In this document: positions 1 to 35,363 of the stretch, one piece after another | Layout of the letters: every line of letters begins with the position of its first letter | Position numbering within the stretch: position 1 is the stretch's first letter | Virus record (IMG/VR): IMGVR_UViG_2728369608_000005 | Length of the DNA stretch: 36,144 nt | From: a virus | Taxonomy: Duplodnaviria; Heunggongvirae; Uroviricota; Caudoviricetes | Reading direction: 5' to 3' (one strand) | The notes under the pieces: generated by a model | Seen by the model: the letters and a program-made list of their open reading frames with translations, nothing else | The model's database searches: none | Told to the model about the DNA's origin: nothing | Made by a program: the position numbers and the translations under genes

Positions 1-502
1 ATGGCAAACCTACCTGAAACCCCGCAGTGGGAAGAAGGCATCTACCAGATTGAGGTCTCTGACCCCGTTCTGGGCGGGCCTGACGGAATTTCTAACCGTC
101 AGGGTAAACAACTGGCCAGCCGCACGCTGTACCTGAAGCAACAGGTTGAAAAAGGCGGTTCTGACCTTGCGAAACATATCGCGGCAGCAGACCCGCATAC
201 CCAGTACGCACCGAAAGCCAGCCCGACATTCACCGGCACACCAACAGCGCCTACGCCTGCAAATAGCGATAACAGCAAGAAGCTGGCGACGACGGAGTTT
301 GTGGCCAAAGCACTTGCGGCGCTTGCAGGCAGCGCCCCTGAGACGCTGGATACGCTCAAAGAGCTGGCTGATGCCCTCGGCAACGATCCGAATTTTGCGA
401 CCACTGTGTTGAACAAGCTGGCGGAGAAGCTGGCCAAAGACCAGAACGGCGCTGATATTCCTGACCCGGCGCTCTTTGTCAAAAACCTTGGTTTGGGAGA
501 AG
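1..502. repeat. Left copy of a perfect >=502-bp inverted repeat (fibre constant region); outer limit cut by window edge
   Basis: Reverse complement of 1..502 equals 2423..2924; first mismatch at 503/2422. Confidence 0.9.
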
Positions 503-942
503 CGGCAAAACGGAATGTGGGCAACGGGGAAAACCAAATCCCTGATATGTCTTTCTGGACGGTTACTGGTGGCAATGGAAATTTTGTGATTCGTCAACCT
601 GACGGGCTAATCATTCAGATGGTTACTGTAAGTATAAGCGGTCCAGTGGCGATGAATGGAATGACTGATAATGCTTATGCCATTACAGGTTCTAATAAGT
701 CTTATATTGCCACAGCCACATTGCCCTTTGTATTTCCTAATAAGGTGCTGGGCGTTATCCCTCTGGTATCAACAACAGCTTATGGTGGTGTATCCAGTAA
801 TATTACAGGTTCATACGCGACGGCGGTTTGTTCTTTTGCCGCTGTCATGGGGAATAATACGATTGTGTTCAAAGTCGACAAACCACTGAATGCAGCCTTT
901 CCTTCAGATACCAGCGTCTCAGCGTTAATCATTGGACGGTAA
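1..942 (+). CDS. Tail fibre protein, variant A (alternative receptor-binding C-terminus)
   Basis: First 167 aa identical to the fibre at 1962..2924, then a different C-terminus encoded by visibly AT-rich DNA. Confidence 0.75.
   Translation: MANLPETPQWEEGIYQIEVSDPVLGGPDGISNRQGKQLASRTLYLKQQVEKGGSDLAKHIAAADPHTQYAPKASPTFTGTPTAPTPANSDNSKKLATTEFVAKALAALAGSAPETLDTLKELADALGNDPNFATTVLNKLAEKLAKDQNGADIPDPALFVKNLGLGEAAKRNVGNGENQIPDMSFWTVTGGNGNFVIRQPDGLIIQMVTVSISGPVAMNGMTDNAYAITGSNKSYIATATLPFVFPNKVLGVIPLVSTTAYGGVSSNITGSYATAVCSFAAVMGNNTIVFKVDKPLNAAFPSDTSVSALIIGR
476..501. promoter_or_regulatory. Candidate hix/gix-like invertase crossover site (left)
   Basis: TTGTCAAAAACC-TT-GGTTTGGGAGAA: two 12-bp half-sites around a 2-bp core, at the inner edge of the repeat. 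Confidence 0.6.
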
Positions 943-944
943 GA

Positions 945-1388
945 ATGAACTCAGTATTCTTTTCACCCGGAAGTAAAAGTTTTTATCTGCAAGAATTGTT
1001 TCCAGAATATGAGGATGCGGGAACGCTTCCTGATGATGTTATTGAAATTACCAGAGAAACATATGAGCAATTTCTTGGGCTGCATCCAGAAGGGAAAGAA
1101 ATTGGCGCTGACAGTTCAGGACGGCCAATATGGATTAATTCCCCGCCGCCTTCAAAAGAGGATGAGATGCTGGCGGCTGAAATGAAAAAGATATCTTTGG
1201 TTTCAGAAGTCAATACCTACATCAATACCAATCAGTGGCCTGGCAAAGCTGCTATTGGTCGTCTGAAAGGTTACGAGCTGGAACAATATAATTTATGGCT
1301 GGATTATCTGGACGCACTGGAACTGGTTGATACCTCCAGTGCTCCAGATATTGAATGGCCTACGCCTCCGGTAGTTCAGGCCAGATGA
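945..1388 (+). CDS. Tail fibre assembly chaperone (Tfa), cognate to variant A
   Basis: C-terminal Tfa signature LWLDYLDALELVDTSSAPDIEWPTPP; directly follows fibre A. Confidence 0.75.
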   Translation: MNSVFFSPGSKSFYLQELFPEYEDAGTLPDDVIEITRETYEQFLGLHPEGKEIGADSSGRPIWINSPPPSKEDEMLAAEMKKISLVSEVNTYINTNQWPGKAAIGRLKGYELEQYNLWLDYLDALELVDTSSAPDIEWPTPPVVQAR

Positions 1389-1965
1389 CATCCGGCGCGG
1401 TGCTGGTATCTGTTGCAGTCACCGCGTCAATGTAATCCAGCACAGCGTTAAGCCGGGTTGTTTCTGCCTGCGTCAGCTTCCGCCCGGCCTGCAATTTCAG
1501 CTGAATCAGACTAATGGAAGCCATAGCAGCATCAATCAGTGACTGGCGCCGTACTTCTGCCGCGTCTACTGCGGCGTTATGCTGTGCCTCAGTATCGGTC
1601 ACCCATTTCTCACCATCCCATTTATCGTATGACGTTAACGGGGCGATAGTGGTTGTATTTTCAGGGTAATCACCCGGAACTGTGATTTCTTTTGATTCTC
1701 CTGTTTCGGTGCTATAGACGATTTCACCGCGATGGTCTGGCACATATTCCCATGAGTTAAAATCTGCAGAACGGCAAATTGCATAACCAGCTTTATATGA
1801 GCCAGGAGCATCTAAACAGGAACATGCCGGGATACCGACACCCACAGCAAGATATTCAGTTGATGTGGAAATATATTCCCGTGTTTCACCATCATAATTA
1901 TAAACGGTAATGTCTCCGGCCTTTGTGGCGATGAGTTCATTATTTAATACAGCTTTACTTATCAT
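1360..1965 (-). CDS. Tail fibre assembly chaperone (Tfa), cognate to variant B
   Basis: C-terminal Tfa signature LDYIDAVTATDTSTAPDVIWPELP; overlaps the start of fibre B by 4 bp. Confidence 0.8.
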   Translation of the reverse strand: MISKAVLNNELIATKAGDITVYNYDGETREYISTSTEYLAVGVGIPACSCLDAPGSYKAGYAICRSADFNSWEYVPDHRGEIVYSTETGESKEITVPGDYPENTTTIAPLTSYDKWDGEKWVTDTEAQHNAAVDAAEVRRQSLIDAAMASISLIQLKLQAGRKLTQAETTRLNAVLDYIDAVTATDTSTAPDVIWPELPEA

Positions 1966-2924
1966 GCAGCCCTCACAATATAATTAAAGGCGATGTTACG
2001 GGAGCGGGTTTCAGATGCTGTGCGAACTGAGCGAGATGCGTCGAATGTCCAGTTATAAGCGCCATAACCCTCAATAATTTCGGCTTCCTTTAGACCTGTA
2101 GATAATACTTCTTGCCCATGTTGACTAAATGGCCCTGAACTAAGTACGCCTTTAAAAAGCTGGGTACGCCCAAAAGAACCAACAATATTCTGAATTGCAT
2201 CATTCTGTGCAGATAATAAGTTACGACCAGAGTCAATCCCGCGCCCATCATCCCAGCCACGAATAAATTCACCGCGTAAATCAGGCAATTTATTTGTCGG
2301 ATAAGCCTTTGCCAGTTCCGGGTATTCTTCAGCAGAAAAAGCCGCACCGTTGCATTTCAGCCAGCCTGTTGGCGGTGTGGCTGAAGGCCATGGAACAGGC
2401 ACACCAACAGGTAATGCAGAGCCTTCTCCCAAACCAAGGTTTTTGACAAAGAGCGCCGGGTCAGGAATATCAGCGCCGTTCTGGTCTTTGGCCAGCTTCT
2501 CCGCCAGCTTGTTCAACACAGTGGTCGCAAAATTCGGATCGTTGCCGAGGGCATCAGCCAGCTCTTTGAGCGTATCCAGCGTCTCAGGGGCGCTGCCTGC
2601 AAGCGCCGCAAGTGCTTTGGCCACAAACTCCGTCGTCGCCAGCTTCTTGCTGTTATCGCTATTTGCAGGCGTAGGCGCTGTTGGTGTGCCGGTGAATGTC
2701 GGGCTGGCTTTCGGTGCGTACTGGGTATGCGGGTCTGCTGCCGCGATATGTTTCGCAAGGTCAGAACCGCCTTTTTCAACCTGTTGCTTCAGGTACAGCG
2801 TGCGGCTGGCCAGTTGTTTACCCTGACGGTTAGAAATTCCGTCAGGCCCGCCCAGAACGGGGTCAGAGACCTCAATCTGGTAGATGCCTTCTTCCCACTG
2901 CGGGGTTTCAGGTAGGTTTGCCAT
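1962..2924 (-). CDS. Tail fibre protein, variant B (tail-collar-type C-terminus), currently joined to the late operon
   Basis: Lies directly downstream of the gpI-like gene; C-terminus has Mu S / P2 H-like collar motifs (WLKCNGAAFSAEEYPELAKAYP, LPDLRGEFIRGWDDGRG). Confidence 0.85.
   Translation of the reverse strand: MANLPETPQWEEGIYQIEVSDPVLGGPDGISNRQGKQLASRTLYLKQQVEKGGSDLAKHIAAADPHTQYAPKASPTFTGTPTAPTPANSDNSKKLATTEFVAKALAALAGSAPETLDTLKELADALGNDPNFATTVLNKLAEKLAKDQNGADIPDPALFVKNLGLGEGSALPVGVPVPWPSATPPTGWLKCNGAAFSAEEYPELAKAYPTNKLPDLRGEFIRGWDDGRGIDSGRNLLSAQNDAIQNIVGSFGRTQLFKGVLSSGPFSQHGQEVLSTGLKEAEIIEGYGAYNWTFDASRSVRTASETRSRNIAFNYIVRAA
2423..2924. repeat. Right copy of the inverted repeat
   Basis: Same comparison as the left copy; the N-terminal 167 aa of both fibres are identical. 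Confidence 0.9.
2424..2449. promoter_or_regulatory. Candidate hix/gix-like invertase crossover site (right)
   Basis: TTCTCCCAAACC-AA-GGTTTTTGACAA; closely resembles Salmonella hixL as I recall it (TTCTTGAAAACCAAGGTTTTTGATAA). Confidence 0.6.
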
Positions 2925-2926
2925 AA

Positions 2927-3505
2927 TTAACTGCTCCCGTGGTTATAGCTACCGTCATAGTTGACGGTGTTGTTGTAGCGAATGGCGACAGACTGATACT
3001 CAAGGCTCGCCAGATGGCAGCGGGCCGGAGCAAAGGCAGCGAGCGTCTGGCGTAACAGCGCCGCCTGATCGTTAGTAATGGGCTGCTGAAGGATGACGCG
3101 ATAGACCGCCCAGGCTTCTGCATCGCCATGGACGAAAAGCCCGTTGTACGTGTGTTTGCCGTCGTAGCCAATCTGGCCAGTGCCTTCAATCAGATCCACT
3201 TCGCCGAAGCCGAAACGGCGGATAATTTCCCGGATTGACCACGGCGTCCCTTTATAGCGGTGCAGCTCGATAGCAGATTTGATAAGCATGCGGCGTACAT
3301 CGTCCGATTCCGCCAGCTCCCAGCCATCGCCAAACAGCGAGAACTGCTCGCCCAGCCATGGCAGCGCGGAACTGTCGACGATATCGACGAGATAGACCAT
3401 CAGTACGCTCAGGTCGATGTTATCCAGCTGCCCGGCCAGTTTTCCCAGCGTTCTGAGGCTGATATCACCCTCAAGCGGCGGCGGGAGTTGTAGCGGCTCA
3501 GCCAT
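2927..3505 (-). CDS. Tail/baseplate protein (P2 gpI-like, Mu gp48-like)
   Basis: 192 aa; sits between baseplate J and the tail fibre; stop at 2927 abuts the fibre start. Confidence 0.6.
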   Translation of the reverse strand: MAEPLQLPPPLEGDISLRTLGKLAGQLDNIDLSVLMVYLVDIVDSSALPWLGEQFSLFGDGWELAESDDVRRMLIKSAIELHRYKGTPWSIREIIRRFGFGEVDLIEGTGQIGYDGKHTYNGLFVHGDAEAWAVYRVILQQPITNDQAALLRQTLAAFAPARCHLASLEYQSVAIRYNNTVNYDGSYNHGSS

Positions 3506-4601
3506 CGGACACCCCGGTCATGTTAAGAGTGATCGCCGTGCAGTTTGCCCATTCGTTTTCTGCCACCACCCGCAGTGGCGGTGTCACCAGTTCAACCTGG
3601 TACACCCCGGAGACGGACAACACACTGATAATCTGGCTGGGAACAATATCGCGCCCCAGCGTGGCGGTACGTGATGCCACCCAGTTCTGTATGGCGCTGT
3701 TGGCGTTGTCCTTTACCGAGTTGGCATCCTGGTCGCGGTAGATCGTGATATTGGCTTCAATGGTGTAATCCACCTGCAGAGGTGTTTTAGCCCGCACGGT
3801 ATCAGTAAGTGGCCTGACTTTTTCGTCAGAACAGAAACTCTCTACCAGCGTGAGGATGCTGTCGTCCGGCAGGCCGGTACTGAGCAGCGGATACAGCTCT
3901 ACGGTACCGGGGACCGGGGAAAGCACGGCAACATCGACAATGTTGGGATGGGCCTGCATGGCATGAAAGCGGTATGCCATACGGCTTCCGGCGTTGGTGA
4001 ATGACTCCGGGGCCAGTTTGATACGCTCGCGGAGCCTGTCATTGTCTTCCTGCTCAGAACCGCCAGAACTGGCCGCCATATTGGTCACCTGCAGGTCGAC
4101 GTTATCAATCTCATCGAGCAACTGACTGACCTGCGCAGGCTGCCAGCCGTTGCCTGCGGCTCCCGGCTCGGTACAGGTGGCCGTGGCATTGACAAGCAGC
4201 AATCCGGCTTTCAGCACTACGTCCGTATCGGTTGCAAAAATAATGCTGTCGGAAGCGCTGACGCGGGTACCTGCCGGAATCAGCACATCAATGGCCAGTT
4301 CCTCATCCACGGAGAACTGGAGCGTGGTGGTGGCAGGCTGCGCGGCCAGTCGGTATACACCAACCAGTTCACCGAGGTAATCAATCATCGGCTCACGGGC
4401 AAAGGCGACCAGATTCTGTTTGGCCGCTTCCTGCGCCGCCACCCTGACCAGCATTTCGCGGTATGCCCACAGGTCAATCAACAGGCGCTCAGCCTGAGCG
4501 GGGTATAGCGTCTTGCCAGTTGCGGCTTCGTACTGTGCAATCATTTCAGCCGTGATTTTGTCAGCATCACGTTCAATAAAATCGGGTTCTGTCAGCGCCA
4601 T
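3498..4601 (-). CDS. Baseplate protein J-like (Mu gp47-like)
   Basis: 367 aa in the conserved V-W-J-I order; overlaps neighbours by a few bases. Confidence 0.7.
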   Translation of the reverse strand: MALTEPDFIERDADKITAEMIAQYEAATGKTLYPAQAERLLIDLWAYREMLVRVAAQEAAKQNLVAFAREPMIDYLGELVGVYRLAAQPATTTLQFSVDEELAIDVLIPAGTRVSASDSIIFATDTDVVLKAGLLLVNATATCTEPGAAGNGWQPAQVSQLLDEIDNVDLQVTNMAASSGGSEQEDNDRLRERIKLAPESFTNAGSRMAYRFHAMQAHPNIVDVAVLSPVPGTVELYPLLSTGLPDDSILTLVESFCSDEKVRPLTDTVRAKTPLQVDYTIEANITIYRDQDANSVKDNANSAIQNWVASRTATLGRDIVPSQIISVLSVSGVYQVELVTPPLRVVAENEWANCTAITLNMTGVSDG

Positions 4602-4939
4602 AGCAACTCCTGAGTCCGGGGTTGTCCGTCAGAGCCTTTCCAGCTCACCCGGAGCGTAAGATGTTCGCCGTCGACGGCGGGTTTAACCGACATAAGCTGG
4701 CAGCGAGGCTCCCAGCGGCGAATGGCATCGACGGATTCGCGCACCACATGCGGAATAGCCCGGTCAATAGGCCAGTCGATATAAAGGTGCAGATTGCTGC
4801 CGAACTCCGGGCGATGCGGGTCGCTGCCGCGAGGAGTACGCAGGATGATTTGAATGGCCTGCCAGATATCATCCAGCCCCCGGACGATTTCGCCAGGGGC
4901 CTGCAGAGCCGGTTGCCAGAATACTGAGGTTGTTTTCAT
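4592..4939 (-). CDS. Baseplate protein GPW/gp25-like (Mu gp46-like)
   Basis: 115 aa, size and position typical of GPW. Confidence 0.7.
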   Translation of the reverse strand: MKTTSVFWQPALQAPGEIVRGLDDIWQAIQIILRTPRGSDPHRPEFGSNLHLYIDWPIDRAIPHVVRESVDAIRRWEPRCQLMSVKPAVDGEHLTLRVSWKGSDGQPRTQELLWR

Positions 4940-4993
4940 GGGGGCAGTATTGCCCCTGTGCGGGAACGCCGATATTAAAGGCGTTTAAGAAGG

Positions 4994-10574: not shown

Positions 10575-10734
10575 TGAGCGGCTCGTCCCAGTCAGCCGGG
10601 TCTTTACTGATTTTGCGCACCTGCTTCAGGTCTTTGACCGTCAGGCGTTTCAGTTCAACCTGCTCAACTCTGGTGCCTGCTGCGGTGGTGAAGGGATAAG
10701 ACAGCTTAAAAGTATCGGATTGGGTCTGTGACAT
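10420..10734 (-). CDS. Tail assembly chaperone (P2 gpE-like)
   Basis: 104 aa, acidic C-terminus, directly upstream of the tape measure gene. Confidence 0.6.
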   Translation of the reverse strand: MSQTQSDTFKLSYPFTTAAGTRVEQVELKRLTVKDLKQVRKISKDPADWDEPLIARSTGILPEDLDNMDLADYMELQKRFQQVTGLGKSDENADAGAGAAGEVV

Positions 10735-10797
10735 GATCGTGCTCCTGTGTAAGTTCAGAGCAGTATGTCTGGAGGTGGACGTGACGGATATTAAAGG

Positions 10798-11114: not shown

Positions 11115-11116
11115 CG

Positions 11117-24981: not shown

Positions 24982-25224
24982 TCAGAAAACAATCCTTATC
25001 GAACAAACACTGCACGTAGGTAACACATCCAGTAAATCGCGTTAATAGAAAACAGTTATCCATAAGCCTCATCCTGACAATGAAAGAACGACCAGCCCGG
25101 TGCGGTAACACCAGGCTGGTCATCAACCCACAGGTATGCACTGTGAGCCGACCAGGGTTCAGTCAGTCTCGCGAGACCAGACTAGCCTGCCATATTTTCA
25201 CTGATTGCAAAAGGCTTACGGATA

Positions 25225-25995: not shown

Positions 25996-26008
25996 AAGAG
26001 GTAGTTAA

Positions 26009-26036
26009 AGGTGGTGGTGCATCTGCAGCACCACCT
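26009..26036. terminator. Hairpin between convergent Dam and lipoprotein genes (possible bidirectional terminator)
   Basis: AGGTGGTGGTGCA / TGCAGCACCACCT, 13-bp stem with one mismatch; weak T-tracts on both sides. Confidence 0.4.
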
Positions 26037-26042
26037 AAACAT

Positions 26043-26576
26043 TTAATCCTGCCTTGGACAAGTCCAATAATCATTATCTGGCTCTGGTGAATAAGCTTTC
26101 AAACAACCTGCTCGCGGGGTCTTACCATCATCTGTCATAGGAACTTTTTCCTTATCAAGTTTCACGGTCAGGTCTCCACCAGGAACATCCGTTTTATCGA
26201 AAAAAACAGCCTGACATGCTGATTTAGATATTTTCACTTCGTGGGCATTATTTGATATGAACAAATAACAATTATGACCAGAGGCTATGTAGTCACTTGG
26301 AATATTATTTTCGTCTTTAATATGAAACTGCACCGTTGTCACCGGGCGTTCGCTATCCTCGGATACTTCGACTTTTTCAAAACTGTCCGCGTACTTATCC
26401 AGGCCGGGGAGTTGTTGGCGAATAAACGGTAATTCGCGATTTACAACCGGATTATCTGTTTCAACGCTAAAAACCGCGTGCTCCTTAGCTGTGGTGGACG
26501 TATCAGCAGGATCGGTATTATCTCCACACCCAGATAAAACAAATATCAACGGTAAAAATAATTTGCGCATAGTCAT
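26043..26576 (-). CDS. Lipoprotein moron (candidate lysogenic-conversion / superinfection-exclusion protein)
   Basis: Signal peptide with lipobox LSGC; gene visibly AT-rich versus surrounding phage DNA; 35 bp downstream of the repressor on the same strand. Second ATG at 26570 has better Shine-Dalgarno spacing. Confidence 0.75.
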   Translation of the reverse strand: MTMRKLFLPLIFVLSGCGDNTDPADTSTTAKEHAVFSVETDNPVVNRELPFIRQQLPGLDKYADSFEKVEVSEDSERPVTTVQFHIKDENNIPSDYIASGHNCYLFISNNAHEVKISKSACQAVFFDKTDVPGGDLTVKLDKEKVPMTDDGKTPRAGCLKAYSPEPDNDYWTCPRQD

Positions 26577-26611
26577 GTCCTTATACCTCTAATGTTCTTA
26601 ATAGGAACAGA

Positions 26612-27022
26612 TTAACCCGTATTTTTTAATCTTTCGAACGCTGCGGACAGCTCCTTAAGCTGTTTTTCCATATCAATCATTCGCTGTTTTTCCTCAGCGC
26701 CTCGCAGCAACTCTTTTCGCACCTCTGGCTCCAGTTGGTTGAGCAGCTCCAATAACTTCAGATCAGACTGGTTGAAATGCTGCTCCTGATTAGCTGGCTG
26801 TGCTTTCTCTACCCCAACAGCTTCCCCTTTACCAGTAAGTAGCCAATCTATTGATATGTTCAAATGGGTGCTTAGCGCAACAAGAGCCTCTGCATTAGGT
26901 TCTCTCTCTCCACGCAGATAGTTTTGAAGTGAGCGATATGGAATTTTTGACAAGTCTGACAATGCCTTAATTGTCAGACCCTTAGCATCCATCGCTTCGC
27001 GCAATCTCTCTTTTATACTCAT
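26612..27022 (-). CDS. Phage repressor, XRE-family HTH
   Basis: Internal ATG at 27022 (MSIKERLREAMDAKGLTIKALSDLSKIPYRSLQNYLRGER, 136 aa); divergent from the early operon. Confidence 0.75.
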   Translation of the reverse strand: MSIKERLREAMDAKGLTIKALSDLSKIPYRSLQNYLRGEREPNAEALVALSTHLNISIDWLLTGKGEAVGVEKAQPANQEQHFNQSDLKLLELLNQLEPEVRKELLRGAEEKQRMIDMEKQLKELSAAFERLKNTG

Positions 27023-27038
27023 TTGAACATATCTCAAT

Positions 27039-27066
27039 TTGACATACCCGTTTGGGTGCGTACAAT
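27039..27066 (+). promoter_or_regulatory. Candidate early promoter (sigma-70 type) for the ner-A-B operon
   Basis: TTGACA (27039..27044), 16-bp spacer, TACAAT (27061..27066); AGGAA Shine-Dalgarno 10 nt before the ATG at 27111. Confidence 0.5.
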
Positions 27067-27110
27067 AGACCCAATAGAGTACATCATAACCCAACAGGAA
27101 CACGGTGCAT

Positions 27111-27335
27111 ATGAACAAACAACAAGTTCGGGCACGGCTGGTTGAAAGAGGCAGTAGCTTGCGCCAGTTCGCGCTTAACGCGGGCTATGAGCCACGAACA
27201 GTCACCCAGGCTGTCAGCCGCTGGGCAGGCAAAAGCGAACTTCCACGCGGTCGTTTGACTTATCGGATTTTGCGAGACCTTTCGGTCGCAATAGGCAAAG
27301 AAGTTACCCCCGGCATCCTCAAGGAGGCGTCATGA
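27111..27335 (+). CDS. ner: Ner-like DNA-binding protein
   Basis: 74 aa; LRQFALNAGYEPRTVTQAV pattern resembles Mu Ner; first gene of the early operon. Confidence 0.65.
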   Translation: MNKQQVRARLVERGSSLRQFALNAGYEPRTVTQAVSRWAGKSELPRGRLTYRILRDLSVAIGKEVTPGILKEAS

Positions 27336-27637
27336 GTAAACCAAATACATCAAGCTCAGGTACCCGTATTTTGCGTGTCCTTAAGGCTTTACGCGGTCAC
27401 GCTCTGAACGGTGTTTCTAACGGCGAGCTGGCGTCAGCTCTGGGCGAGTCCCCGGCGAATATCAATCGGGCGCTCAATACCCTTATCGAAGAAGGACTGG
27501 CCCTGAAACTGGATAACGGGCGTTTTGCCCCAGGAGTCCAGCTCTTACAAATCGCCATGGCGCACAGTACCGAAATGGCGCGGGCGCAGGATCGTATCAA
27601 TGAAATTAACCAGCGTGTTATGGCTGGTAGTCGCTAA
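27332..27637 (+). CDS. Winged-HTH DNA-binding protein (IclR-N-like, no effector domain)
   Basis: 101 aa; RILRVLKAL...GVSNGELASALGESPANINRALNTLIEEGLA; ATGA overlap with ner. Confidence 0.55.
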   Translation: MSKPNTSSSGTRILRVLKALRGHALNGVSNGELASALGESPANINRALNTLIEEGLALKLDNGRFAPGVQLLQIAMAHSTEMARAQDRINEINQRVMAGSR

Positions 27638-27646
27638 GGAGTTGAA

Positions 27647-28555
27647 ATGGGACGCACAAAATCACAACCAGTTGAACTAGTGGAAGATGCACCGCTGACC
27701 GATGGTCTCAGTGTCAGTCTTAATGCTATGTCCGAACATCGCCTCGAAATCATGCAGCAGTTTGGTGATGGCCTGCCGTATGAACGTGATCGTATTGTCC
27801 ATGAAACACGTTTTTATATGGCTCAGAGTGCTGAAGCCATGCTGGAGGCGGGTAAACGACTGGTAATTCTCAAAGAAAATGAACCACATGGTGACTTCAT
27901 CGACATCGTTGAGTCTCAGTTGTCCCTATCCAAACGTACCGCGCAGGTGATGATGCAAGCATCCCTCAAATATTTGTCTCCCAAGCTTGAACCAAAAGCG
28001 CAAGCGCTTGCGCTTTTGGGTAAAACAAAGCTGTTTGAGTTGATGACGGAAGATGACGAAGACCTCGTCGAATTAGCCGATGGCGGCACGATTGCTGGTA
28101 TGAGCCTCGATGATATTGATCGCATGACAAGCCGCGAACTGAAAGCGGCCCTACGCGAAGCGCGTGAAACCAACGCAGCACAACAGCGCGTGCTTGCCGA
28201 CAAAAACGAAAAAATCGACTCGCTTTCCACAAAACTGGAGAAGAAATCCCGTATCCAGCCGCCCAAGCCTGACGAAGAGGTGAAGAAGCTGCGTGCGGAA
28301 GTTACAGCGTTAGCGGTTGAGGCGGAATCTGCCATCGCCGTTCGACTGTCCAGCGCCTTTGAGACCCTGTGCGCATACTGTGCTGAAAATATGATTGATA
28401 CCCCCAGAGACTTTATGGCCGGTCTGGTCTGCCAGTTGGAAAGCACCGCGCGTAGCCTGCGCTCCACATTTGACCTGCCGGACGAGCCGACAGGCAACGC
28501 CGCCCCTTCATGGCTGACTGACCCGACGCCAGAGATTAACGGGCAGGAGGCATAA
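27647..28555 (+). CDS. Conserved Mu-like early protein upstream of transposase (possibly DUF3102-like)
   Basis: 302 aa with a charged coiled-coil centre; family name recalled, not verified. Confidence 0.5.
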   Translation: MGRTKSQPVELVEDAPLTDGLSVSLNAMSEHRLEIMQQFGDGLPYERDRIVHETRFYMAQSAEAMLEAGKRLVILKENEPHGDFIDIVESQLSLSKRTAQVMMQASLKYLSPKLEPKAQALALLGKTKLFELMTEDDEDLVELADGGTIAGMSLDDIDRMTSRELKAALREARETNAAQQRVLADKNEKIDSLSTKLEKKSRIQPPKPDEEVKKLRAEVTALAVEAESAIAVRLSSAFETLCAYCAENMIDTPRDFMAGLVCQLESTARSLRSTFDLPDEPTGNAAPSWLTDPTPEINGQEA

Positions 28556-28558
28556 CCC

Positions 28559-30328
28559 ATGAGTGCCGCCCTGACTGAACGACTGGTTTATGTTGCCCGC
28601 GCGGCACGTGACGCGGGGCATGGTAAGCGTGGTGCGATATATGATGCCGCCTGCGCCGAACTGGGCATTTCCCGCGCCACCCTGCTGCGCAAGCTGAAGG
28701 AGGTATCAGTGACTGACAAACGTAAAAAACGCGCCGATGCCGGGCGCAGTGCCCTGAGCCGCGACGAAGCCGCGCTGATATCTGCCACGCTGCGCGAGGC
28801 CACCCGTAAGAACGGTAAGCGCCTGTATTCCATCGCGGATGCGGTGGAGACCCTGCGGTCAAACGGCTTTATCACTGCTGGCAGAACGGACGAGGCCACA
28901 GGCGAGTTTTTCCCGCTGTCCGAGGACACCATCAGCCGCGCCCTGCGGAACTATGGTCTGCACCCGGAACAGCTTGACGCACCGGCCCCGTCGTCCGAGA
29001 TGGCCAGCCTGCATCCCAATCACGTCTGGGAGATTGATGCCTCACTTTGTACGCTTTACTACCTGAGCAACGGCCATAAAGGGTTGCAGGTGATGGACAG
29101 CTCGAAGTTCTACAAGAACAAGCCTGCCAACATCGCCCGCATCGCCAGTGACCGCGTGTGGAGTTACGAGATTACCGACCATACCAGCGGCTGGATTTAC
29201 GTTGAGTACGTGATGGGTGCGGAATCTGGTGAGAACCTCTGTTCTGTGCTTATCAACGCCATGCAGGAGCGCGGCGGCGCGGACGTGCTGCACGGCGTGC
29301 CGAAAATACTCTACCTTGATCCCGGTTCGGCGAACACCGCTGGCATGACGAAAAACATGTGCCGCTCGCTGGGCATCAATCTGATAGCGCACAAGCCGCA
29401 TAACGCCCGCGCCACCGGGCAGGTGGAAAAGGCCCGTGACATTATCGAACGTAAACTGGAGCCGGGTCTCAAATTCCAGCCGGTTCATAGCCTGGACGAA
29501 CTGAACGCGCTGGCGGTGAAATGGCGCAGCCACTTTAACGCCACGGCGGTCCACAGCCGCCACGGTAAAACCCGCACGGATATCTGGCTGAAGATTACTG
29601 CTGGCCAGCTGAAAAAAGCGCCATCCGTTGAGGTTTGCCGCGAACTGGCGGTGGCCGCACCGGAACTCCGTAAGGTCACACCAAAACTGCGCGTCTCGTT
29701 CCGGGGCAATGAGTTTGACGTTTCGACGGTACCGGGCGTACTGGTCGGCGAAAAACTGATGATTACCCGTAACCCGTGGCGCAGCGATGTGGCGCAGGTG
29801 GTGCTGACCGGTGAGGACGGTCACGAGACGTTCTTCCTAGTCGAGGAGGTCAGAAAGAACGAGTTCGGCTTTGCCGAAAGCGCGGCGGTATTTGGCGAAA
29901 ACTACAAAGCCCTGCCGGAGACCCCGGCGCAGACGGCGGCAAAAGAAATCGAAGAGCTGGTTACGGGCACCGATAACGCCACCGATGCAGCTGCTGCACG
30001 CAAGGCGAAGGCGCTGCCGTTCGGCGGGCGACTTGACCCGTACAAACATATCGACGACACCACGCTTCCGGCCTATATGCCGAAGCGCGGTCAGGCTTCA
30101 GACGTGCGCGGGCCGCGTATTGAGCAGCGTCCGCTGACCCATGTGGAGGCGGCGAAAGCCCTGCGCGAGAAGTTTGGCGCTAACGGCCATATCTGGACGC
30201 CGGAACATTACCGCCAGTTAACGGCACAGTACCCGGACGGCGTACCGGAAGCCGCTCTGGATGAGGTCATGGTCACCCTGACCACTCCGGCCCGCAACAG
30301 CGTTATCAGCATCGTTAACGGTAACTGA
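28559..30328 (+). CDS. DDE transposase (Mu A-like function)
   Basis: 589 aa; candidate DDE residues in HVWEIDAS, LYLDPGSANT and a downstream Glu; followed by the B-like ATPase. Confidence 0.8.
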   Translation: MSAALTERLVYVARAARDAGHGKRGAIYDAACAELGISRATLLRKLKEVSVTDKRKKRADAGRSALSRDEAALISATLREATRKNGKRLYSIADAVETLRSNGFITAGRTDEATGEFFPLSEDTISRALRNYGLHPEQLDAPAPSSEMASLHPNHVWEIDASLCTLYYLSNGHKGLQVMDSSKFYKNKPANIARIASDRVWSYEITDHTSGWIYVEYVMGAESGENLCSVLINAMQERGGADVLHGVPKILYLDPGSANTAGMTKNMCRSLGINLIAHKPHNARATGQVEKARDIIERKLEPGLKFQPVHSLDELNALAVKWRSHFNATAVHSRHGKTRTDIWLKITAGQLKKAPSVEVCRELAVAAPELRKVTPKLRVSFRGNEFDVSTVPGVLVGEKLMITRNPWRSDVAQVVLTGEDGHETFFLVEEVRKNEFGFAESAAVFGENYKALPETPAQTAAKEIEELVTGTDNATDAAAARKAKALPFGGRLDPYKHIDDTTLPAYMPKRGQASDVRGPRIEQRPLTHVEAAKALREKFGANGHIWTPEHYRQLTAQYPDGVPEAALDEVMVTLTTPARNSVISIVNGN

Positions 30329-30338
30329 GGAGGAAGGC

Positions 30339-31505
30339 ATGCTGGTACTGAAGCAACAACTGAAAGAGGCCCGCATCCCGCAGGCGGCGGTGGCAAGAGC
30401 CGTCGCCGTTTCCGAGGCCACGCTGGCCCAGATTGTGAACCATAACGAGTGGCCCCGCACCAGCCCCGAAGAGGTACGCCAGCGTCTGGCGTTGTATCTG
30501 GAAAGTAAGGGGATTGATACAGCGAAAAGTTTTGATGCTGCACAGGGCGCTGTCACACCCCGTACAGCGGGTACTACCGATAAAACCAACCTCAGTGAGG
30601 AAGAGAACATGTTACTCAAAAAGCAGGTGTTATTTCCAGCAACCAAAAAAGCGTTTGGTCTTTTCCGTGACCCGTTCGCCGATGAAGCCATGCAGGGCGC
30701 GGACGATGTGTTCACCACGCCGGATATCCGCTACGTGCGTGAGGCGCTGTTCCAGACCGCCCGCCACGGTGGCTTTCTGGCGGTTATCGGCGAGTCCGGT
30801 GCGGGTAAATCCACGCTGCGCCGCGACCTGATTGAACGCGTCAACCGCGAGAACGCGCCGGTGATTGTTATCGAGCCATACATCATCGCCATGGAAGACA
30901 ACGACGTGAAGGGCAAAACCCTGAAGGCGGCAGCTATCGCCGAGGCCATCATCAGCACCATCGCGCCGCTGGAGAGTATCAAACGCAGCCAGGACGCCCG
31001 TTTCCGCCAGTTGCACCGCGTCCTGAAGGACAGCAGTCAGGCGGGTTTTAGCCACGTTCTGGTGATTGAGGAGGCCCACAGTCTGCCCATTCCGACGCTG
31101 AAGCACCTCAAACGCTTCTTTGAGCTGGAATCCGGCTTCAAAAAACTGCTGTCCATCGTGCTGATTGGCCAGCCTGAGCTGGCGGACAAACTGTCCGAAC
31201 GCAACATGGAAGTCCGTGAGGTCGTCCAGCGCTGCGAGGTGGTTGAACTGCTGCCGCTGGACAACAGCCTCGAAGAGTTTCTGACGTTCAAACTGCAACG
31301 CGCCGGTAAGCAGCTGTCTGACATCATGGACGCCAGCGCAGTGGAAGCCGTCCGCGCCCGTCTGAGCAATCTGGGCAGCAACCGTAAAAGCATGGTCAGC
31401 CTGCTGTATCCGCTGGCCGTCAGTAACCTGGTGATAGCCGCCATGAATCTGGCTGCTGAAATCGGGGTTCCGCAGGTCAACGCCGACGTCGTCAAAGGAG
31501 TTTAA
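30339..31505 (+). CDS. Transposition ATPase (Mu B-like, AAA+)
   Basis: 388 aa; N-terminal HTH-like region; Walker A GESGAGKST; Walker B-like VLVIEEAH. Confidence 0.8.
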   Translation: MLVLKQQLKEARIPQAAVARAVAVSEATLAQIVNHNEWPRTSPEEVRQRLALYLESKGIDTAKSFDAAQGAVTPRTAGTTDKTNLSEEENMLLKKQVLFPATKKAFGLFRDPFADEAMQGADDVFTTPDIRYVREALFQTARHGGFLAVIGESGAGKSTLRRDLIERVNRENAPVIVIEPYIIAMEDNDVKGKTLKAAAIAEAIISTIAPLESIKRSQDARFRQLHRVLKDSSQAGFSHVLVIEEAHSLPIPTLKHLKRFFELESGFKKLLSIVLIGQPELADKLSERNMEVREVVQRCEVVELLPLDNSLEEFLTFKLQRAGKQLSDIMDASAVEAVRARLSNLGSNRKSMVSLLYPLAVSNLVIAAMNLAAEIGVPQVNADVVKGV

Positions 31506-31507
31506 TC

Positions 31508-31777
31508 ATGAAATCCATCGCCGATATCAACCAGCAGATGAACAAGGTGCAGTCCGCCATTATGGCGCTCAACGCCATGAACACTACCGTGCAGAGCGTC
31601 ATGATTGCTGGCAGTAAGCCGGTTATCCGTATCGCCCGCAACGGGCACTGTGCCCGCCTGCTGGAGCAGGGCAAAGCGAGTTATACCCATGTTGGCCATG
31701 ACGGCTCAGGGCGCTTCCGTCAGGGCGTCTTTGAGTTGCATGGCTGCCGTATTACCTGGTCAGAGTCGTTACATTAA
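31508..31777 (+). CDS. Hypothetical early protein
   Basis: 89 aa, starts 3 bp after the B-like stop. Confidence 0.5.
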   Translation: MKSIADINQQMNKVQSAIMALNAMNTTVQSVMIAGSKPVIRIARNGHCARLLEQGKASYTHVGHDGSGRFRQGVFELHGCRITWSESLH

Positions 31778-31794
31778 CCATAAGGTGAACAGAG

Positions 31795-32406
31795 ATGAGC
31801 GAAGTAAATAAAGAAAACTACATGAAAGACCGCAAGGGGCGTCTGGTGCCGGTTGACCAGGTGTCTGACTATGACCTTGCGATGGACTCTTTCGTTAAAG
31901 AACAGGTTGCCGCCGCGAAGGTTAAACGCGATGAACTCAGCGACTTCAAGCGTCGTGCCTTTGACGAGTGCTATGCCTGGCTTGACCTTGTGGCCGAGAA
32001 GTACGGCAGAACACGCGGCGGTGCCAAAGGCAACGTGACCTTCAGCAGCTTCGACGGTGCTCAGCAGATCACCATCCGCGTGCAGGAAACCCTGACCTTC
32101 GGGCCAGAGCTGCAGATTGCCAAAGACCTGATAGACGAGTGCGTCACCGAGTGGTCGGAAGGCGCGAACGCCAACCTGCGGGCCATCATCAGCGATGCTT
32201 TTCAGGTGGACAAAGAGGGCCAGCTTAATACCGGACGTATTCTTTCCCTGCGCCGCGTCAAGATTCAGGACGAGCGCTGGAACCGGGCAATGGAGGCTAT
32301 ATCGGAATCACTGCAAGTGGCAATGTCCAAAACCTATATTAATTTCCGGGAGAAAGATAAACACGGGAAGCTAATTAATATCCCGTTAGATATCGCTGCC
32401 ATTTAA
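31795..32406 (+). CDS. Conserved Mu-like early protein (possibly DUF3164-like)
   Basis: 203 aa; family name recalled, not verified. Confidence 0.5.
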   Translation: MSEVNKENYMKDRKGRLVPVDQVSDYDLAMDSFVKEQVAAAKVKRDELSDFKRRAFDECYAWLDLVAEKYGRTRGGAKGNVTFSSFDGAQQITIRVQETLTFGPELQIAKDLIDECVTEWSEGANANLRAIISDAFQVDKEGQLNTGRILSLRRVKIQDERWNRAMEAISESLQVAMSKTYINFREKDKHGKLINIPLDIAAI

Positions 32407-32484
32407 TTTTAATTCAATTTCTTTTTATTTCGGCGTCAGCGCTGTGGGTTTCTGCACGCCGAAAACAGCATTAAGGAATAAAAC

Positions 32485-32673
32485 ATGTCCATCAAATGTA
32501 CCAACTGCCAGAAAGGTATCACCACCCTGAAGTTCAGCGACGCCAGCGTCATTACCTCCGGTAAGTACCGTGTGCCAGCCGTCCTCATCACGCTGGTATG
32601 CCCTCACTGCAGCCAGCATTACTACACCGAAGTTCCGGCCATGGAGTTCATCCCCTGCGAGGCAAAAAAATGA
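32485..32673 (+). CDS. Small zinc-ribbon protein
   Basis: 62 aa with CxxC (CTNC) ... CxxC (CPHC). Confidence 0.55.
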   Translation: MSIKCTNCQKGITTLKFSDASVITSGKYRVPAVLITLVCPHCSQHYYTEVPAMEFIPCEAKK

Positions 32674-32966
32674 AAGGCATGAAATTATATAACCGCTCCA
32701 CTATATACAATCTGGCCCTGAAAACCTTTGGCCCTGAAGCACAGGCGCTGAAGCTGATGGAAGAAGCCGCCGAGCTGGCCGCTGCTGCCGCCCGCAACAT
32801 GAACGGACTGGGCAGTGAAGTTGATCTGGCTGGCGAACTGGCTGACGTTGAAATCATGATTGAACAGTTCCGCCTCAACGGGATGGGCCTGATGATTGAT
32901 TTTCATAAGCAGAAAAAGCTGGAACGCCTTGCCGAACGCCTGGGGGTGACTTATGCCGCAGAATAA
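32670..32966 (+). CDS. MazG-like nucleotide pyrophosphohydrolase (small all-alpha type)
   Basis: 98 aa from the ATG at 32670 (ATGA overlap); EEAAEL and ELADVEIM metal-binding-like motifs. Confidence 0.55.
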   Translation: MKGMKLYNRSTIYNLALKTFGPEAQALKLMEEAAELAAAAARNMNGLGSEVDLAGELADVEIMIEQFRLNGMGLMIDFHKQKKLERLAERLGVTYAAE

Positions 32967-33642
32967 TGAAAAGCTGCTGGAGAAGTTAAAAAAGCTGCTG
33001 GCGCTGGCTAAATCTGACAACCCCCATGAAGCTGCACTGGCCCTACAACGCGCCCAGAAGCTGATGCAGGCCTATAACATCACCCAGGCTGACCTCGCAC
33101 TCAGCGATATTGATGAAAGCGTCAGTCACTACTGGGCAGCAGGTAGCGTTAACCCACCGCGATACATGCTGGGTCTGCTGGATATTATCCAGGTGGCATT
33201 TGGCGTTAAGTCTATTATTCACTCCGGCTTTAAACCCAGCGTTGGTTTTTACGGTAATAAAGACCGGGTTGAACTGGCCTCATATACATGGGAGGTACTG
33301 GCCAGACAATTAATCGTGGCCCGTAAAAACTATATTCGACAGCAGAATAAAAGAATCAAAAACACGACCAAGACCAGTCGTGGTGACAAGTTTGCCGAAG
33401 GCTGGGTTCTGGCCGTGCGCAGCGAGGTTCATTTATTTGCTATGTCCCGCGAAGAACGGGAGCTGGCAAGCCTCTGGCTTGAACAAAAATACCCTGACTC
33501 AGGCACAACTACGGGCCGTGGGGCCGGGAAGTCACGTGACGCAGACATGTCCCGCCACATCGGTTACAGAGAAGGGGAAAACGTCCGCCTGCATCAGCCC
33601 GTTGGCGGGCAGGAGCAGCATAAACTGAGGGCTGAAAGATGA
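32953..33642 (+). CDS. Conserved early protein with DUF2786-like N-terminus
   Basis: 229 aa; N-terminal LLEKLKKLLALAKSDNPHEAALALQRAQKLMQAYNI. Confidence 0.5.
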   Translation: MPQNNEKLLEKLKKLLALAKSDNPHEAALALQRAQKLMQAYNITQADLALSDIDESVSHYWAAGSVNPPRYMLGLLDIIQVAFGVKSIIHSGFKPSVGFYGNKDRVELASYTWEVLARQLIVARKNYIRQQNKRIKNTTKTSRGDKFAEGWVLAVRSEVHLFAMSREERELASLWLEQKYPDSGTTTGRGAGKSRDADMSRHIGYREGENVRLHQPVGGQEQHKLRAER

Positions 33643-33866
33643 TGTTATCGCGTAAGAAGAAAGCACCGAACCCTTGTCGTACAGCTGCTAAATATCTTTT
33701 TGCTCGCGCCTTTTTTAAGAACGTAAGGCCCGGCATTCAAATTGGCATTATTGCTGGACGAGAGCAGGTTAAAAATTACATGTCAGGTGCATGGTGGAAT
33801 AACGATCCGGTTACTACAGCCCGTAACATTCATATTAACTGGGGTGGGATTCATTATGATGGCTGA
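33639..33866 (+). CDS. Hypothetical small basic protein
   Basis: 75 aa, ATGA-coupled to the upstream gene. Confidence 0.4.
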   Translation: MMLSRKKKAPNPCRTAAKYLFARAFFKNVRPGIQIGIIAGREQVKNYMSGAWWNNDPVTTARNIHINWGGIHYDG

Positions 33867-34071
33867 ATCAATTGTATGTGCCCTGTTCTGGTATGGTCTC
33901 GTGGGGTGGTGTACTGCTGAACTGCACCGCCGCTCAGGTTTTTACTCACGTTACAGCGGTGCCGGACACTGGATCAGTTGGGCCGTTATGTTCATGTGCT
34001 GGCCTGTTGCGCTTCCTTTATATGTCGATTATATCGGTGGCGCAGGTAAAAGGAGCGACGATGATGACTAA
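33856..34071 (+). CDS. Small membrane protein
   Basis: ATG at 33856; hydrophobic Trp-rich segments (ALFWYGLVGW, WAVMFMCWPVALPLYV). Confidence 0.45.
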   Translation: MMAESIVCALFWYGLVGWCTAELHRRSGFYSRYSGAGHWISWAVMFMCWPVALPLYVDYIGGAGKRSDDDD

Positions 34072-34489
34072 GCAGCGTCTTATTCAACTCATCCATATTG
34101 CCCGCAATGACCTCCAGATGGATGAGGACACCTACCGCCAGATGCTACAGGGGCTGACCGGCAAAGCCTCAACCAAAGGGATGGATACCCCACAGCTAAA
34201 CCGCGTGCTGGAATCCATGAAAAATAAAGGCTTTCGCATTAAGCCTGCCGGGAAAGCCAAGTCCGGCTTACCGCTGGATAGTCATCCGCAGTCAAAGAAA
34301 ATCCGTGCGCTATGGCTTGAAATGGCTGCCGCAGGCATCGTCCGAGACAGTTCAGAGCAGGCGCTGGCGCTGTGGGTTAAACGGGAAACAGGCATCAGCG
34401 CGTTACGCTGGCTCAGCAATGAGCAGGCAAGTAGCGTGATTGAGAAACTGAAGAAGTGGCAGCGCAGAGCTGCGGGAGTGAAGCAATGA
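34061..34489 (+). CDS. gemA: GemA-like regulatory protein (Mu gp16-like)
   Basis: ATG at 34061 after AGGAG; RLIQLIHIARNDLQMDEDTYRQML ... KKIRALW ... ALRWLSNEQASSVIEKLKKWQ. Confidence 0.75.
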   Translation: MMTKQRLIQLIHIARNDLQMDEDTYRQMLQGLTGKASTKGMDTPQLNRVLESMKNKGFRIKPAGKAKSGLPLDSHPQSKKIRALWLEMAAAGIVRDSSEQALALWVKRETGISALRWLSNEQASSVIEKLKKWQRRAAGVKQ

Positions 34490-34875
34490 GTGACCTGAAT
34501 CAGTTTCGTAGTAAAGGGCCGGAACTGTTGGTAGAACTGGCACAGCATACCTCTGAGACCGTCCGCGAGATTATTGATATCGAACCCGCAGTTGCCGACC
34601 AGATTGGTCAGGCCGTCGCGAACCGCATGATGCAGGTCTGGGGTGGGCAAAACGTCTATTTTCCGATGGGCATGGTCTGGAAGGTCAGTCAGCGCGACCG
34701 GGAAATCTTCCTGGAGTTTGACGGACGCAACCATCACGAACTGGCCCGCAAATTCGGTGTTTCACTACAGTGGGTTTACAGCGTGGTGAAGCGGGTCAGA
34801 AAAGAAGAATTGGATCGGATGCAGGGCAAACTGTTTGATGGTGACTCTGATTCAGAGAAGGTGGAAAATAGCTAA
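34486..34875 (+). CDS. mor: Mor/C-family transcriptional activator
   Basis: 129 aa from the ATG at 34486; GGQNVYFP ... REIFLEFDGRNHHELARKFGVSLQWVYSVVKRVR. Confidence 0.75.
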   Translation: MSDLNQFRSKGPELLVELAQHTSETVREIIDIEPAVADQIGQAVANRMMQVWGGQNVYFPMGMVWKVSQRDREIFLEFDGRNHHELARKFGVSLQWVYSVVKRVRKEELDRMQGKLFDGDSDSEKVENS

Positions 34876-34894
34876 GCTATTTATAGGAGGACAG

Positions 34895-35224
34895 ATGGCC
34901 AGACCAAGCAATATTGATAAACTGCCAGAGGATGTTCGTGCCGAGCTTCATAGCGAATTATCGCGCACAAACTTCACCGGTTATGAATGGCTCTCGCTCT
35001 GGTTAGCCGATAAAGGTTACAGCGTATCGAAGTCAGCCATTCAGCGTTATGCTGTCGCGAATAAAAATGAAATTCTGGGCCTACAGCAAGAGAGTCGATT
35101 CCATCAGGCACAGCTTCGACTTAATGCGCTTGGTGTAGCGGCAACAATTTCACCAGGAAAAGACCTTGGAAGTTTGAAGAATGATGCAGATGCACTACTA
35201 AAATGGGCGTTGTTTGGTTACTGA
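34895..35224 (+). CDS. gp27-N-terminal-like paralog (DNA-binding?), last gene before the prophage end
   Basis: ATG at 34895 after AGGAGG; N-terminus IDKLPEDVRAELHSEL...SKSAIQRY parallels the gp27-like protein at 21143..21691. Confidence 0.55.
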   Translation: MARPSNIDKLPEDVRAELHSELSRTNFTGYEWLSLWLADKGYSVSKSAIQRYAVANKNEILGLQQESRFHQAQLRLNALGVAATISPGKDLGSLKNDADALLKWALFGY

Positions 35225-35230
35225 ATGAGT

Positions 35231-35256
35231 GGGGGGCATCGTCCCCCTTAATTTTC
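35231..35256 (+). terminator. Rho-independent terminator at the end of the early operon
   Basis: GGGGGG-catcgt-CCCCC hairpin followed by TTAATTTT, directly after the stop at 35224. Confidence 0.5.
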
Positions 35257-35320
35257 ATATACTGTAAATGAATTACATAACCTTTTGTTTGTCTCTTCCC
35301 ATCACGTACCATAAAGTCCC

Positions 35321-35356
35321 ATTTATCTTACGGTACCCCCTATATTTATCTCACGT
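35321..35356. repeat. Terminal direct repeats, candidate transposase-binding sites
   Basis: ATTTATCTTACGG (35321..35333) and ATTTATCTCACGT (35344..35356); element ends ...TCTAATCA at 35363. Confidence 0.5.
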
Positions 35357-35363
35357 CTAATCA

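Follow-up and report, generated by a model that had tools for sequence, protein, structure and literature searches.

The 36,144 nucleotides analysed here (IMG/VR virus record IMGVR_UViG_2728369608_000005, called the window below) are read as almost all of a BcepMu-like transposable myovirus prophage of an Escherichia coli/Klebsiella lineage, inserted in the host gene fcl. The two divergent arms in which its genes lie are the normal arrangement for such phages, and its late promoters would be driven in trans by Mor, an activator encoded in the early arm. The probability of this reading as a whole is put at about 0.85. The divergent layout is a published hallmark of BcepMu-like phages; the architecture is already known, and the lineage is already in public records.

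Genome organization

The early arm consists of 15 genes (27111-35224), all on the plus strand, and every credible gene between 1360 and 24039, about 30 in number, lies on the minus strand and forms the late arm (open reading frame (ORF) map). An earlier note on this DNA had described an early operon running rightward and a late operon running leftward, with the repressor and accessory genes in the middle. This description is real by the ORF map and by colinear blastp matches, and the centre (24415-27022) indeed holds the repressor, dam and two accessory genes. The note also had the early operon run to one end and the late operon toward the other; the early arm does lead to the exact phage end at 35363, while coordinate 1 is the edge of the window and not a phage end.

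The holin gene opens the late arm and is followed by an SLT endolysin, a spanin-like lipoprotein, two small genes, TerS, TerL, portal, MuF and MuG. The order continues with protease/scaffold, major capsid protein, four head-tail genes, sheath, tube, gpE-like chaperone and tape measure, and ends with the P2-type genes U, X, D, V, W, J and I, the fibre gene and a fibre-assembly gene. Compared with Mu, the entire early block, from the repressor and the early promoter through the transposase and the B-like ATPase to GemA and Mor, is inverted as a unit, so that the early operon reads outward to one end. The repressor gene is co-oriented with the genes for lysis, head and tail, and these extend to the opposite end.

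Relationship to BcepMu, Mu and close relatives

The proteins were compared by blastp with protein sets cut from the BcepMu and Mu records. BcepMu homologues were found for 40 of the 51 phage ORFs tested (E up to 0.01, 30-79% identity), and the 40 matches stand in the same order and the same relative orientation as in the window. The transposase is 68% identical to BcepMu gp09 and its AAA+ partner 60% identical to gp08; no window protein gave a blastp match to MuA or MuB. Against Pfam, the transposase scores 31.4 bits with rve, just below the cut-off of 32.6, and the AAA+ protein matches AAA_22 (3.4e-20). Mu-type head and packaging genes, with matches to Mu gp27-31 and gp36, are combined with a P2-type tail colinear with BcepMu gp39-52, which are annotated as equivalents of P2 FI, FII, T, U, X, D, V, W, J, I and H.

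In BcepMu, genes 1-13 were described as bottom-strand genes and 17-52 as top-strand genes, lysogeny control being placed where the two groups meet (Lavigne et al. 2009; PMC2771037), and the records of BcepMu (NC_005882) and phiE255, both of the genus Bcepmuvirus, have an identical two-cluster organization. The earlier note had suggested that BcepMu-like phages are divergent and that Mu itself is colinear, and had proposed a whole-genome comparison. These records and the published description support the former statement and the Mu record (NC_000929) the latter; the comparison makes the divergent layout the norm of the BcepMu group.

The window further shares with BcepMu and phiE255 a Tn552-like (Tn552/IS1604-type) rve transposase with an ExeA-like AAA+ partner, a repressor and early switch at the interface of the arms, an early arm whose outermost genes include GemA and Mor, a lysis cassette at the opening of the late arm, a Mu-type head followed by a P2-type tail and, at the one phage end inside the window, the CA of their TG...CA ends. 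It differs in that BcepMu carries a membrane protein gene, gp19 and gp20 in the middle, where the window has dam and a DUF2441 gene; in an additional Gp27-like gene after Mor; and in the absence of an acyltransferase gene. An invertible fibre segment with an invertase belongs to the enterobacterial lineage, whereas BcepMu is reported without one (PMC2771037, PMC2628397).

Nucleotide similarity to BcepMu covers about 6% of the query at about 75% identity (megablast), alignable solely over sheath and tube, and lies below the level of a shared genus; the proteins are about 30-79% identical. The genus threshold used is that of nucleotide similarity in the ICTV style. The window phage thus has a BcepMu-like architecture but probably represents a separate genus-level lineage.

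Mu is alike in being transposable with random insertion, in homologous TerS, TerL, portal, F, G, gp36, GemA and Mor, in having several late promoters that depend on an activator (as predicted for the window), one of them in the G-I gap, and in an invertible fibre segment with the invertase at the far end. Unlike the window, Mu is colinear with only c leftward, uses two activators (Mor, then C) with C-type sites, has its own tail genes instead of P2-type ones, and encodes MuA and MuB, to which the window proteins have no detectable similarity. The features of Muvirus (Mu, D108, SfMu), namely a colinear early-middle-late layout, MuA/MuB and Mor plus C, are absent from the window.

Essentially the same phage occurs in public records. 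Klebsiella phage KP12 clone KP12_2 (OM835952) is 96-98% identical over almost the whole element, and Escherichia phage PhiKM (PQ738613), filed in GenBank under Bcepmuvirus, has about 85% nucleotide identity (both megablast); the annotated gene orders of both are that of the window. Positions 2239-35363 align with the closed chromosome of E. coli CFSAN051542 (NZ_CP020835) as a single block of 33,125 bp at 99.78% identity, within a prophage at 1705126-1740629 between napH and napB. The gene order of this prophage is likewise identical. All three relatives differ from the window in the fibre C-terminal and assembly cassettes, and KP12 in addition has a deletion of about 300 bp in the DUF2786 gene. 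KP12 and the CFSAN051542 prophage have the invertase end that the window lacks, and the window has a flipped fibre duplicate that they lack.

Two of the public records deserve separate mention. OM835952 is filed in GenBank under Vequintavirinae, yet it is the genome of a BcepMu-like transposable prophage; its likely source is a prophage of the host used for propagation, assembled along with the phage, and it would then not belong to a Vequintavirus. In the closed assembly of E. coli JCH8249, a separate record of 40,540 bp (NZ_CP132021.1) bears the early end of the phage at 99.9% identity and may represent phage DNA, packaged or excised, that assembled into a contig of its own.

The Mor activator and the proposed regulatory cascade

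The Mor protein matches Pfam Mor (PF08765) over the full-length profile (1-107) at 1e-42 and is 53% identical to BcepMu gp01. No second Mor/C gene was found by tblastn in the window, the CFSAN051542 prophage, PhiKM or BcepMu. A Mu-like cascade of three tiers through a second Mor/C gene was considered and rejected, since tblastn searches with four members of the family, including Mu Mor, Mu C and BcepMu gp01, hit nothing in the window other than 34486-34875.

On the plus strand of the early arm, the predicted early promoter (Table 1) alone gives a strong promoter match, and no terminator-like site was found there other than the one just after the last gene. With one early promoter and one terminal terminator, Mor would be made near the end of an 8-kb transcript. 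The proposed course is that derepression lets the sigma-70 promoter at 27039-27066 drive the 8-kb early operon to the terminator at 35231. Mor, the second-to-last early product, would then bind as a diffusible dimer to dyads, centred at about -43.5, of the four late promoters P_holin, P_I, P_E and P_W and recruit host RNA polymerase there, 10-30 kb from its own gene. A single Mor homologue is thus inferred to activate four late promoters directly in trans, in a cascade of two tiers (early to late) instead of the three of Mu (early, Mor, C).

Predicted late promoters

Intergenic gaps of the late arm share a 16-bp dyad, nnTAA-N6-TTAAn, with a GC-rich spacer. Exactly 22 nucleotides (nt) after the dyad stands a weak -10-like hexamer whose second base is A and whose sixth is T, and none of the four late sites has a -35 hexamer. 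A degenerate pattern built on this arrangement matches the window six times, against 0.15 expected, and four of these matches correspond to the intergenic sites on the minus strand. The same pattern occurs exactly three times in BcepMu and three times in phiE255, always on the late strand, upstream of the holin, the protease and gpW. A terminator-like hairpin (10826-10811) precedes P_E.

Two IMG/VR scans yielded 80 loci for the surroundings of the protease gene and another 80 for those of the endolysin gene. Upstream of the protease, 25 of 26 representative loci (49-100% protease identity) carry the strict pattern, and the remaining one has the variant CTTAATGGGGGTTAAC. The 69 loci compared upstream of the holin gave 25 distinct sequences, of which 24 have the box, in each case 22 nt from nATGCT. 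The sequence of the 22-nt spacer varies freely in both sets, and the box, the nAnnnT hexamer and their exact distance are kept. A weight matrix made from the relatives' sites ranks the four window sites at the top (18.9-20.3 bits), with the next independent site at 14.6 bits.

The Mor site at the Mu promoter Pm is a 16-bp element with 5-bp inverted repeats and a GC-rich 6-bp spacer, centred at -43.5 (PMC4390567). When reconstructed from the Mu sequence and the positions quoted in that paper, Pm reads AGTAAAGCCGGTTAAT, 22 nt, TATCCT, with the element at -51 to -36, and reproduces the published -57G and -54A. The window sites share its format, half-sites and spacing. Sites of the Mu C type have the form TTAT-N5-6-ATAA (PMC12867686), and no TTAT-N6-ATAA site occurs anywhere in the window. 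Mor most likely binds directly beside the four late promoters.

Several points weigh against this reading. The promoters, their start sites and the assignment of the boxes to Mor are deduced from sequence. The motif was spotted by eye and then tested, which makes the enrichment statistics post hoc, and the training set of the weight matrix took in close relatives. A fourth BcepMu site, upstream of gp41, is degenerate, and the window Mor is only 30% identical to Mu Mor. The A/T-rich right half-sites TTTAAAAT and TTTAATAT could themselves be the -10 element. The left phage end, the invertase and the target duplication lie outside the window.

A further pattern match at 10697-10712 on the plus strand is antisense within the gpE-like gene and was set aside as probably due to chance or coding constraint. 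A weaker Mor-type box, AGTAAATCGCGTTAAT, stands upstream of dam at 25031-25046 on the plus strand (pattern match 25033-25048; 13.2 bits). It closely resembles Mu Pm, has a CATCCT hexamer 23 nt downstream (region 25031-25075) that is followed by a hairpin with a 17-bp stem (25087-25124), and is conserved in close relatives only. This box is a weak candidate, through which the methylase may be late-regulated in a manner reminiscent of Mu mom.

Alternative explanations

The earlier note had concluded that Mor, being encoded far from the late promoter upstream of the holin, must act at a distance if it drives the late genes. Mor/C proteins are diffusible dimeric activators that bind a 16-bp dyad centred at -43.5 of their target promoters (PMC4390567, PMC2582627), and by the Mu map C serves four promoters across about 25 kb (10.4, 18, 27.6 and 35.7 kb). 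With action in trans, the location of the gene says nothing about the site of action and a separation of 10-30 kb is irrelevant. Action in cis, for instance by looping from a site at the mor gene over the 10.4 kb to P_holin, found no supporting evidence. Pattern and weight-matrix scans gave no Mor-type box near the mor gene or anywhere in the early arm; the boxes sit at the late promoters themselves, at four of them and not at the holin alone. Action in cis is very improbable. Another explanation takes the late-arm motif as a self-sufficient promoter with TTAAAAT or TTAATAT as its -10 region, the late genes being expressed without direct binding of Mor or with Mor acting elsewhere. TAAAAT and TAATAT are good -10 hexamers, and the downstream hexamer at P_W and at BcepMu P_I is just 6-7 nt from the ATG and would require leaderless mRNAs. 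However, with a good -10 element free of any activator, lysogens would express their lysis genes constitutively; conservation extends to the left half-site and to the exact distance to nAnnnT while the spacer varies; and format, half-sites and spacing agree with the mapped Mor site of Pm. A self-sufficient promoter is accordingly improbable, and direct activation by Mor is preferred.

The earlier note had also allowed for the two arms being the result of a recent inversion or a misassembly. A local anomaly does exist at the far left, where bases 1-502 are a 100% inverted duplicate (502 nt) of 2423-2924, the constant 5' part of the fibre gene; the N-terminal parts of the two fibre copies are identical at 169 of 174 amino acids. 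This anomaly is restricted to the invertible fibre segment and does not create the arms. Since 2239-35363 form a single block in a closed chromosome, the arms are neither a recent inversion nor a misassembly, and KP12, PhiKM, BcepMu, phiE255 and the published BcepMu map (PMC2771037) have the same order and orientation; the chance of such an origin is practically negligible. The left edge itself is a different matter. Bases 1-502 align to the CFSAN051542 fibre gene in the orientation opposite to the rest of the window, and the 502-nt repeat stops at the crossover site TTGTCAAAAACCTTGGTTTGGGAGAA. The repeat is clean and ends exactly at that site, as a genuine long repeat flanking the segment would, and the C segment of P1 is flanked by long (0.6 kb) inverted repeats. 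Closed near-identical prophages, however, have only the site of about 26 bp and the invertase gene at this place (in CFSAN051542 these alone precede the alternative fibre part), and the arrangement of window 1-3600 was found in one place in 0 of 5426 closed E. coli genomes. The window also carries both the Sc-Sv and the Sc-Sv' junctions, which normally belong to alternative flip states. A real long repeat is therefore unlikely, though it keeps some weight; the left edge is probably an assembly chimera in which both states of the invertible fibre segment were joined into one sequence. Unless long reads support them, the left 502 bases are not to be taken as true genome structure.

Predicted leaders of the late transcripts

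P_holin, P_I and P_E each have an inverted repeat that begins with the final bases of the predicted -10 hexamer. The Shine-Dalgarno sequence lies in its right arm, and the arm complementary to the Shine-Dalgarno sequence ends at the predicted +1. Predicted folds are more stable with the left arm than from the predicted +1 (Table 1). In relatives the pairing is retained with different arms, for example GTGAC/GTCAC and CTCCGG/CCGGAG. The hairpins are supported by single-sequence folds and manual inspection; for the P_I leader, RNAalifold gave no consensus structure from 13 diverse leaders aligned with MAFFT, as their differing lengths and registers make the alignment poor. In IS10, fold-back inhibition blocks translation of read-through transcripts. 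By analogy, it is hypothesized that the hairpins may block translation of read-through RNA and leave Mor-initiated RNA translatable. Such protection would be useful because the repressor operon points at the lysis genes.

P_W and BcepMu P_I are of another kind. The ATG follows the -10-like hexamer by 6-7 nt, an arrangement that BcepMu and phiE255 share at P_W, so leaderless mRNAs are predicted. The stretches concerned lie at 4939-4951 in the window (P_W) and at about 30811-30825 and 18849-18864 in BcepMu. The annotated start of BcepMu gp32 (18850) overlaps the predicted -10 element, and the third ATG (18862) fits the conserved N-terminus MNA....

Taken together, a fuller model is put forward tentatively and is somewhat doubtful as a whole: a two-tier cascade with one Mor-type activator on four, perhaps five (dam), late promoters, fold-back protection at P_holin, P_I and P_E, and leaderless transcripts from P_W and BcepMu P_I.

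Termini, insertion site and fibre segment

The right end of the phage is exact at 35363: matches to several closed E. coli genomes stop there, and the flanking genes differ. The sequence reads ...CACGTCTAATCA (fuller, ...CATTTATCTCACGTCTAATCA) up to the terminal dinucleotide CA, and host DNA follows. The direct repeats listed for this end, CATTTATCT(T/C)ACG, are presumed transposase-binding sites. The CFSAN051542 prophage has TG...CA termini, a 6-bp target duplication (TCATGA) and inverted copies of the CGTGAGATAAAT-type repeat at both ends. Beyond 35363 the window continues with a remnant of fcl that covers profile positions 65-307 of 308, with the first 64 codons or so missing on the window side; the host gene is evidently interrupted by the prophage. 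The fcl pathway serves the synthesis of colanic acid or O-antigen. The insertion site thus differs from that in CFSAN051542. The second phage end lies beyond the window; in KP12 and CFSAN051542 the invertase gene and about 80 bp more follow the fibre segment. The element is a complete-looking and probably active transposable prophage.

The plus-strand position of the genes at 1-942 and 945-1388 is explained by their being the alternative fibre and fibre-assembly genes of the invertible segment. The module 475-2450 is common to many E. coli prophages (98% identity). As in Mu (Gin, G segment), P1 (Cin, C segment) and Salmonella (Hin), opposed fibre/assembly pairs are flanked by inverted 26-bp crossover sites within the fibre gene, which we take to resemble the hix/gix consensus, and the invertase gene is adjacent in the related prophages KP12 (24-605) and CFSAN051542 (36474-37055 of the stretch compared). 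The window departs from these systems in its 502-nt repeat, against about 26 bp in its relatives, and in that the region matching the invertase gene is outside it.

Other genome features

The coordinates of the features are collected in Table 1. Assignments in both arms and the middle block were confirmed by Pfam. Between the AAA+ protein and GemA the early arm holds DUF3164, DUF2786 and several small ORFs.

Table 1. Features of the prophage, its promoters and the adjoining host DNA
Feature	Position	Strand	Remarks
Inverted duplicate of fibre 5' part	1-502	+	100% complementary to 2423-2924
Crossover site, Hin/Gin/Cin-type	477-502		TTGTCAAAAACCTTGGTTTGGGAGAA; second, inverted copy at 2423-2448
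Alternative fibre C-terminal part	503-942	+	invertible segment
Alternative fibre-assembly gene	945-1388	+	opposed assembly-gene pair annotated in CFSAN051542
Late-arm module	1360-24039	-	colinear blastp matches to BcepMu gp21-gp52; Mu gp27-31, gp36; annotations of near-identical prophages
Fibre-assembly gene	1360-1965	-	last gene of late arm
Tail fibre gene	1962-2924	-	late arm
P_W (candidate)	4989-4946	-	upstream of baseplate gene W; box CTTAAACGCCTTTAAT, 22 nt, AATACT, 6 nt, ATG; predicted +1 near 4938-4939
P_E (candidate)	10805-10762	-	upstream of gpE-like tail chaperone; box CTTAATCCCCTTTAAT, 22 nt, CATACT; predicted +1 near 10754
Inverted repeat at P_E	10734-10769	-	predicted fold with left arm -11.0 kcal/mol, z -2.0; from predicted +1 -1.4
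P_I (candidate)	16723-16680	-	upstream of protease/scaffold; box TCTAAAGCAGATTAAA, 22 nt, CAGACT; predicted +1 near 16672
Inverted repeat at P_I	16649-16687	-	predicted fold with left arm -13.1 kcal/mol, z -2.3; from predicted +1 -4.8
P_holin (candidate)	24109-24066	-	box TATAACGCGCTTTAAA (24109-24094), 22 nt, GATGCT (24071-24066); predicted +1 near 24058
Inverted repeat at P_holin	24039-24073	-	predicted fold with left arm -10.8 kcal/mol, z -2.5; from predicted +1 -1.4
Holin	23689-24039	-	first gene of late arm
Middle block	24415-27022	mixed	four genes separating the arms
DUF2441 gene	24415-24981	-	Pfam DUF2441 1.1e-06
Dam methylase	25225-25995	+	Pfam MethyltransfD12 1.5e-27
Hypothetical gene	26043-26576	-	middle block
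cI-type helix-turn-helix (HTH) repressor	26612-27022	-	Pfam HTH_3 3e-12, Phage_CI_repr 2e-06
Divergent switch region	27023-27110		between repressor and first early gene
Early promoter, sigma-70 (predicted)	27039-27066	+	TTGACA-16-TACAAT; 11/12 consensus matches; predicted +1 near 27073
Small HTH proteins (two)	27111-27637	+	early arm
DUF3102 gene	27647-28555	+	early arm
rve/DDE transposase	28559-30328	+	early arm
AAA+ ExeA-like, B-like protein	30339-31505	+	early arm
GemA	34062-34489	+	early arm
Mor	34486-34875	+	second-to-last gene of early arm; 129 amino acids
Gp27-like gene	34895-35224	+	last early gene, adjoins phage end
Terminator-like hairpin	35231-35247	+	GGGGGGCATCGTCCCCC and T-rich tail, just after last early gene
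Early-side phage end	35290-35363		two direct repeats CATTTATCT(T/C)ACG, terminal CA
Host flank, truncated fcl (GDP-L-fucose synthase)	35364-36144 (ORF 35374-36144)	+	NCBIfam GDPFucSynFcl 7.7e-137

The Gp27-like gene encodes a protein of 109 amino acids that is paralogous to the small terminase's N-terminal domain (Pfam Phage_Mu_Gp27, 9.3e-15) and 54% identical to BcepMu gp27 across 52 amino acids; the BcepMu end has no annotated counterpart. The protein might conceivably act at the packaging or transposition end. A further, unannotated ORF of 107 amino acids at 24171-24494 (alternative start 24111) reads along the plus strand, away from the holin promoter, and runs into the 3' end of the DUF2441 gene; its ribosome-binding site, GGAGG, is strong. 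Neither Pfam nor NCBIfam gave a match for it, and PhiKM has a different divergent gene in its place. The G-I gap holds a unique perfect palindrome, CCTTTATAAAGG (16796-16807), inside a larger hairpin; it is kept in the same gap in all relatives examined, BcepMu included, and the gap lies near the centre of the prophage, which matches the place of the strong gyrase site of Mu between G and I.

Implications

A clamp-binding motif has been reported for the Mor/C family by Ho and Harshey (PMC12867686). The window Mor has QGKLF near its C-terminus (residues 113-117) and BcepMu gp01 has QRDLF; their resemblance to this motif suggests that late transcription may be coupled to replication. The practical value of the present analysis lies in annotation, and its weight as a discovery is small, as near-identical prophages are already public. 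The sequence-level promoter map, with four Mor-type boxes, one activator and no C-type sites, provides a testable model. It could show how a simpler cascade works and how the Mor/C pair of Mu may have arisen by duplication.

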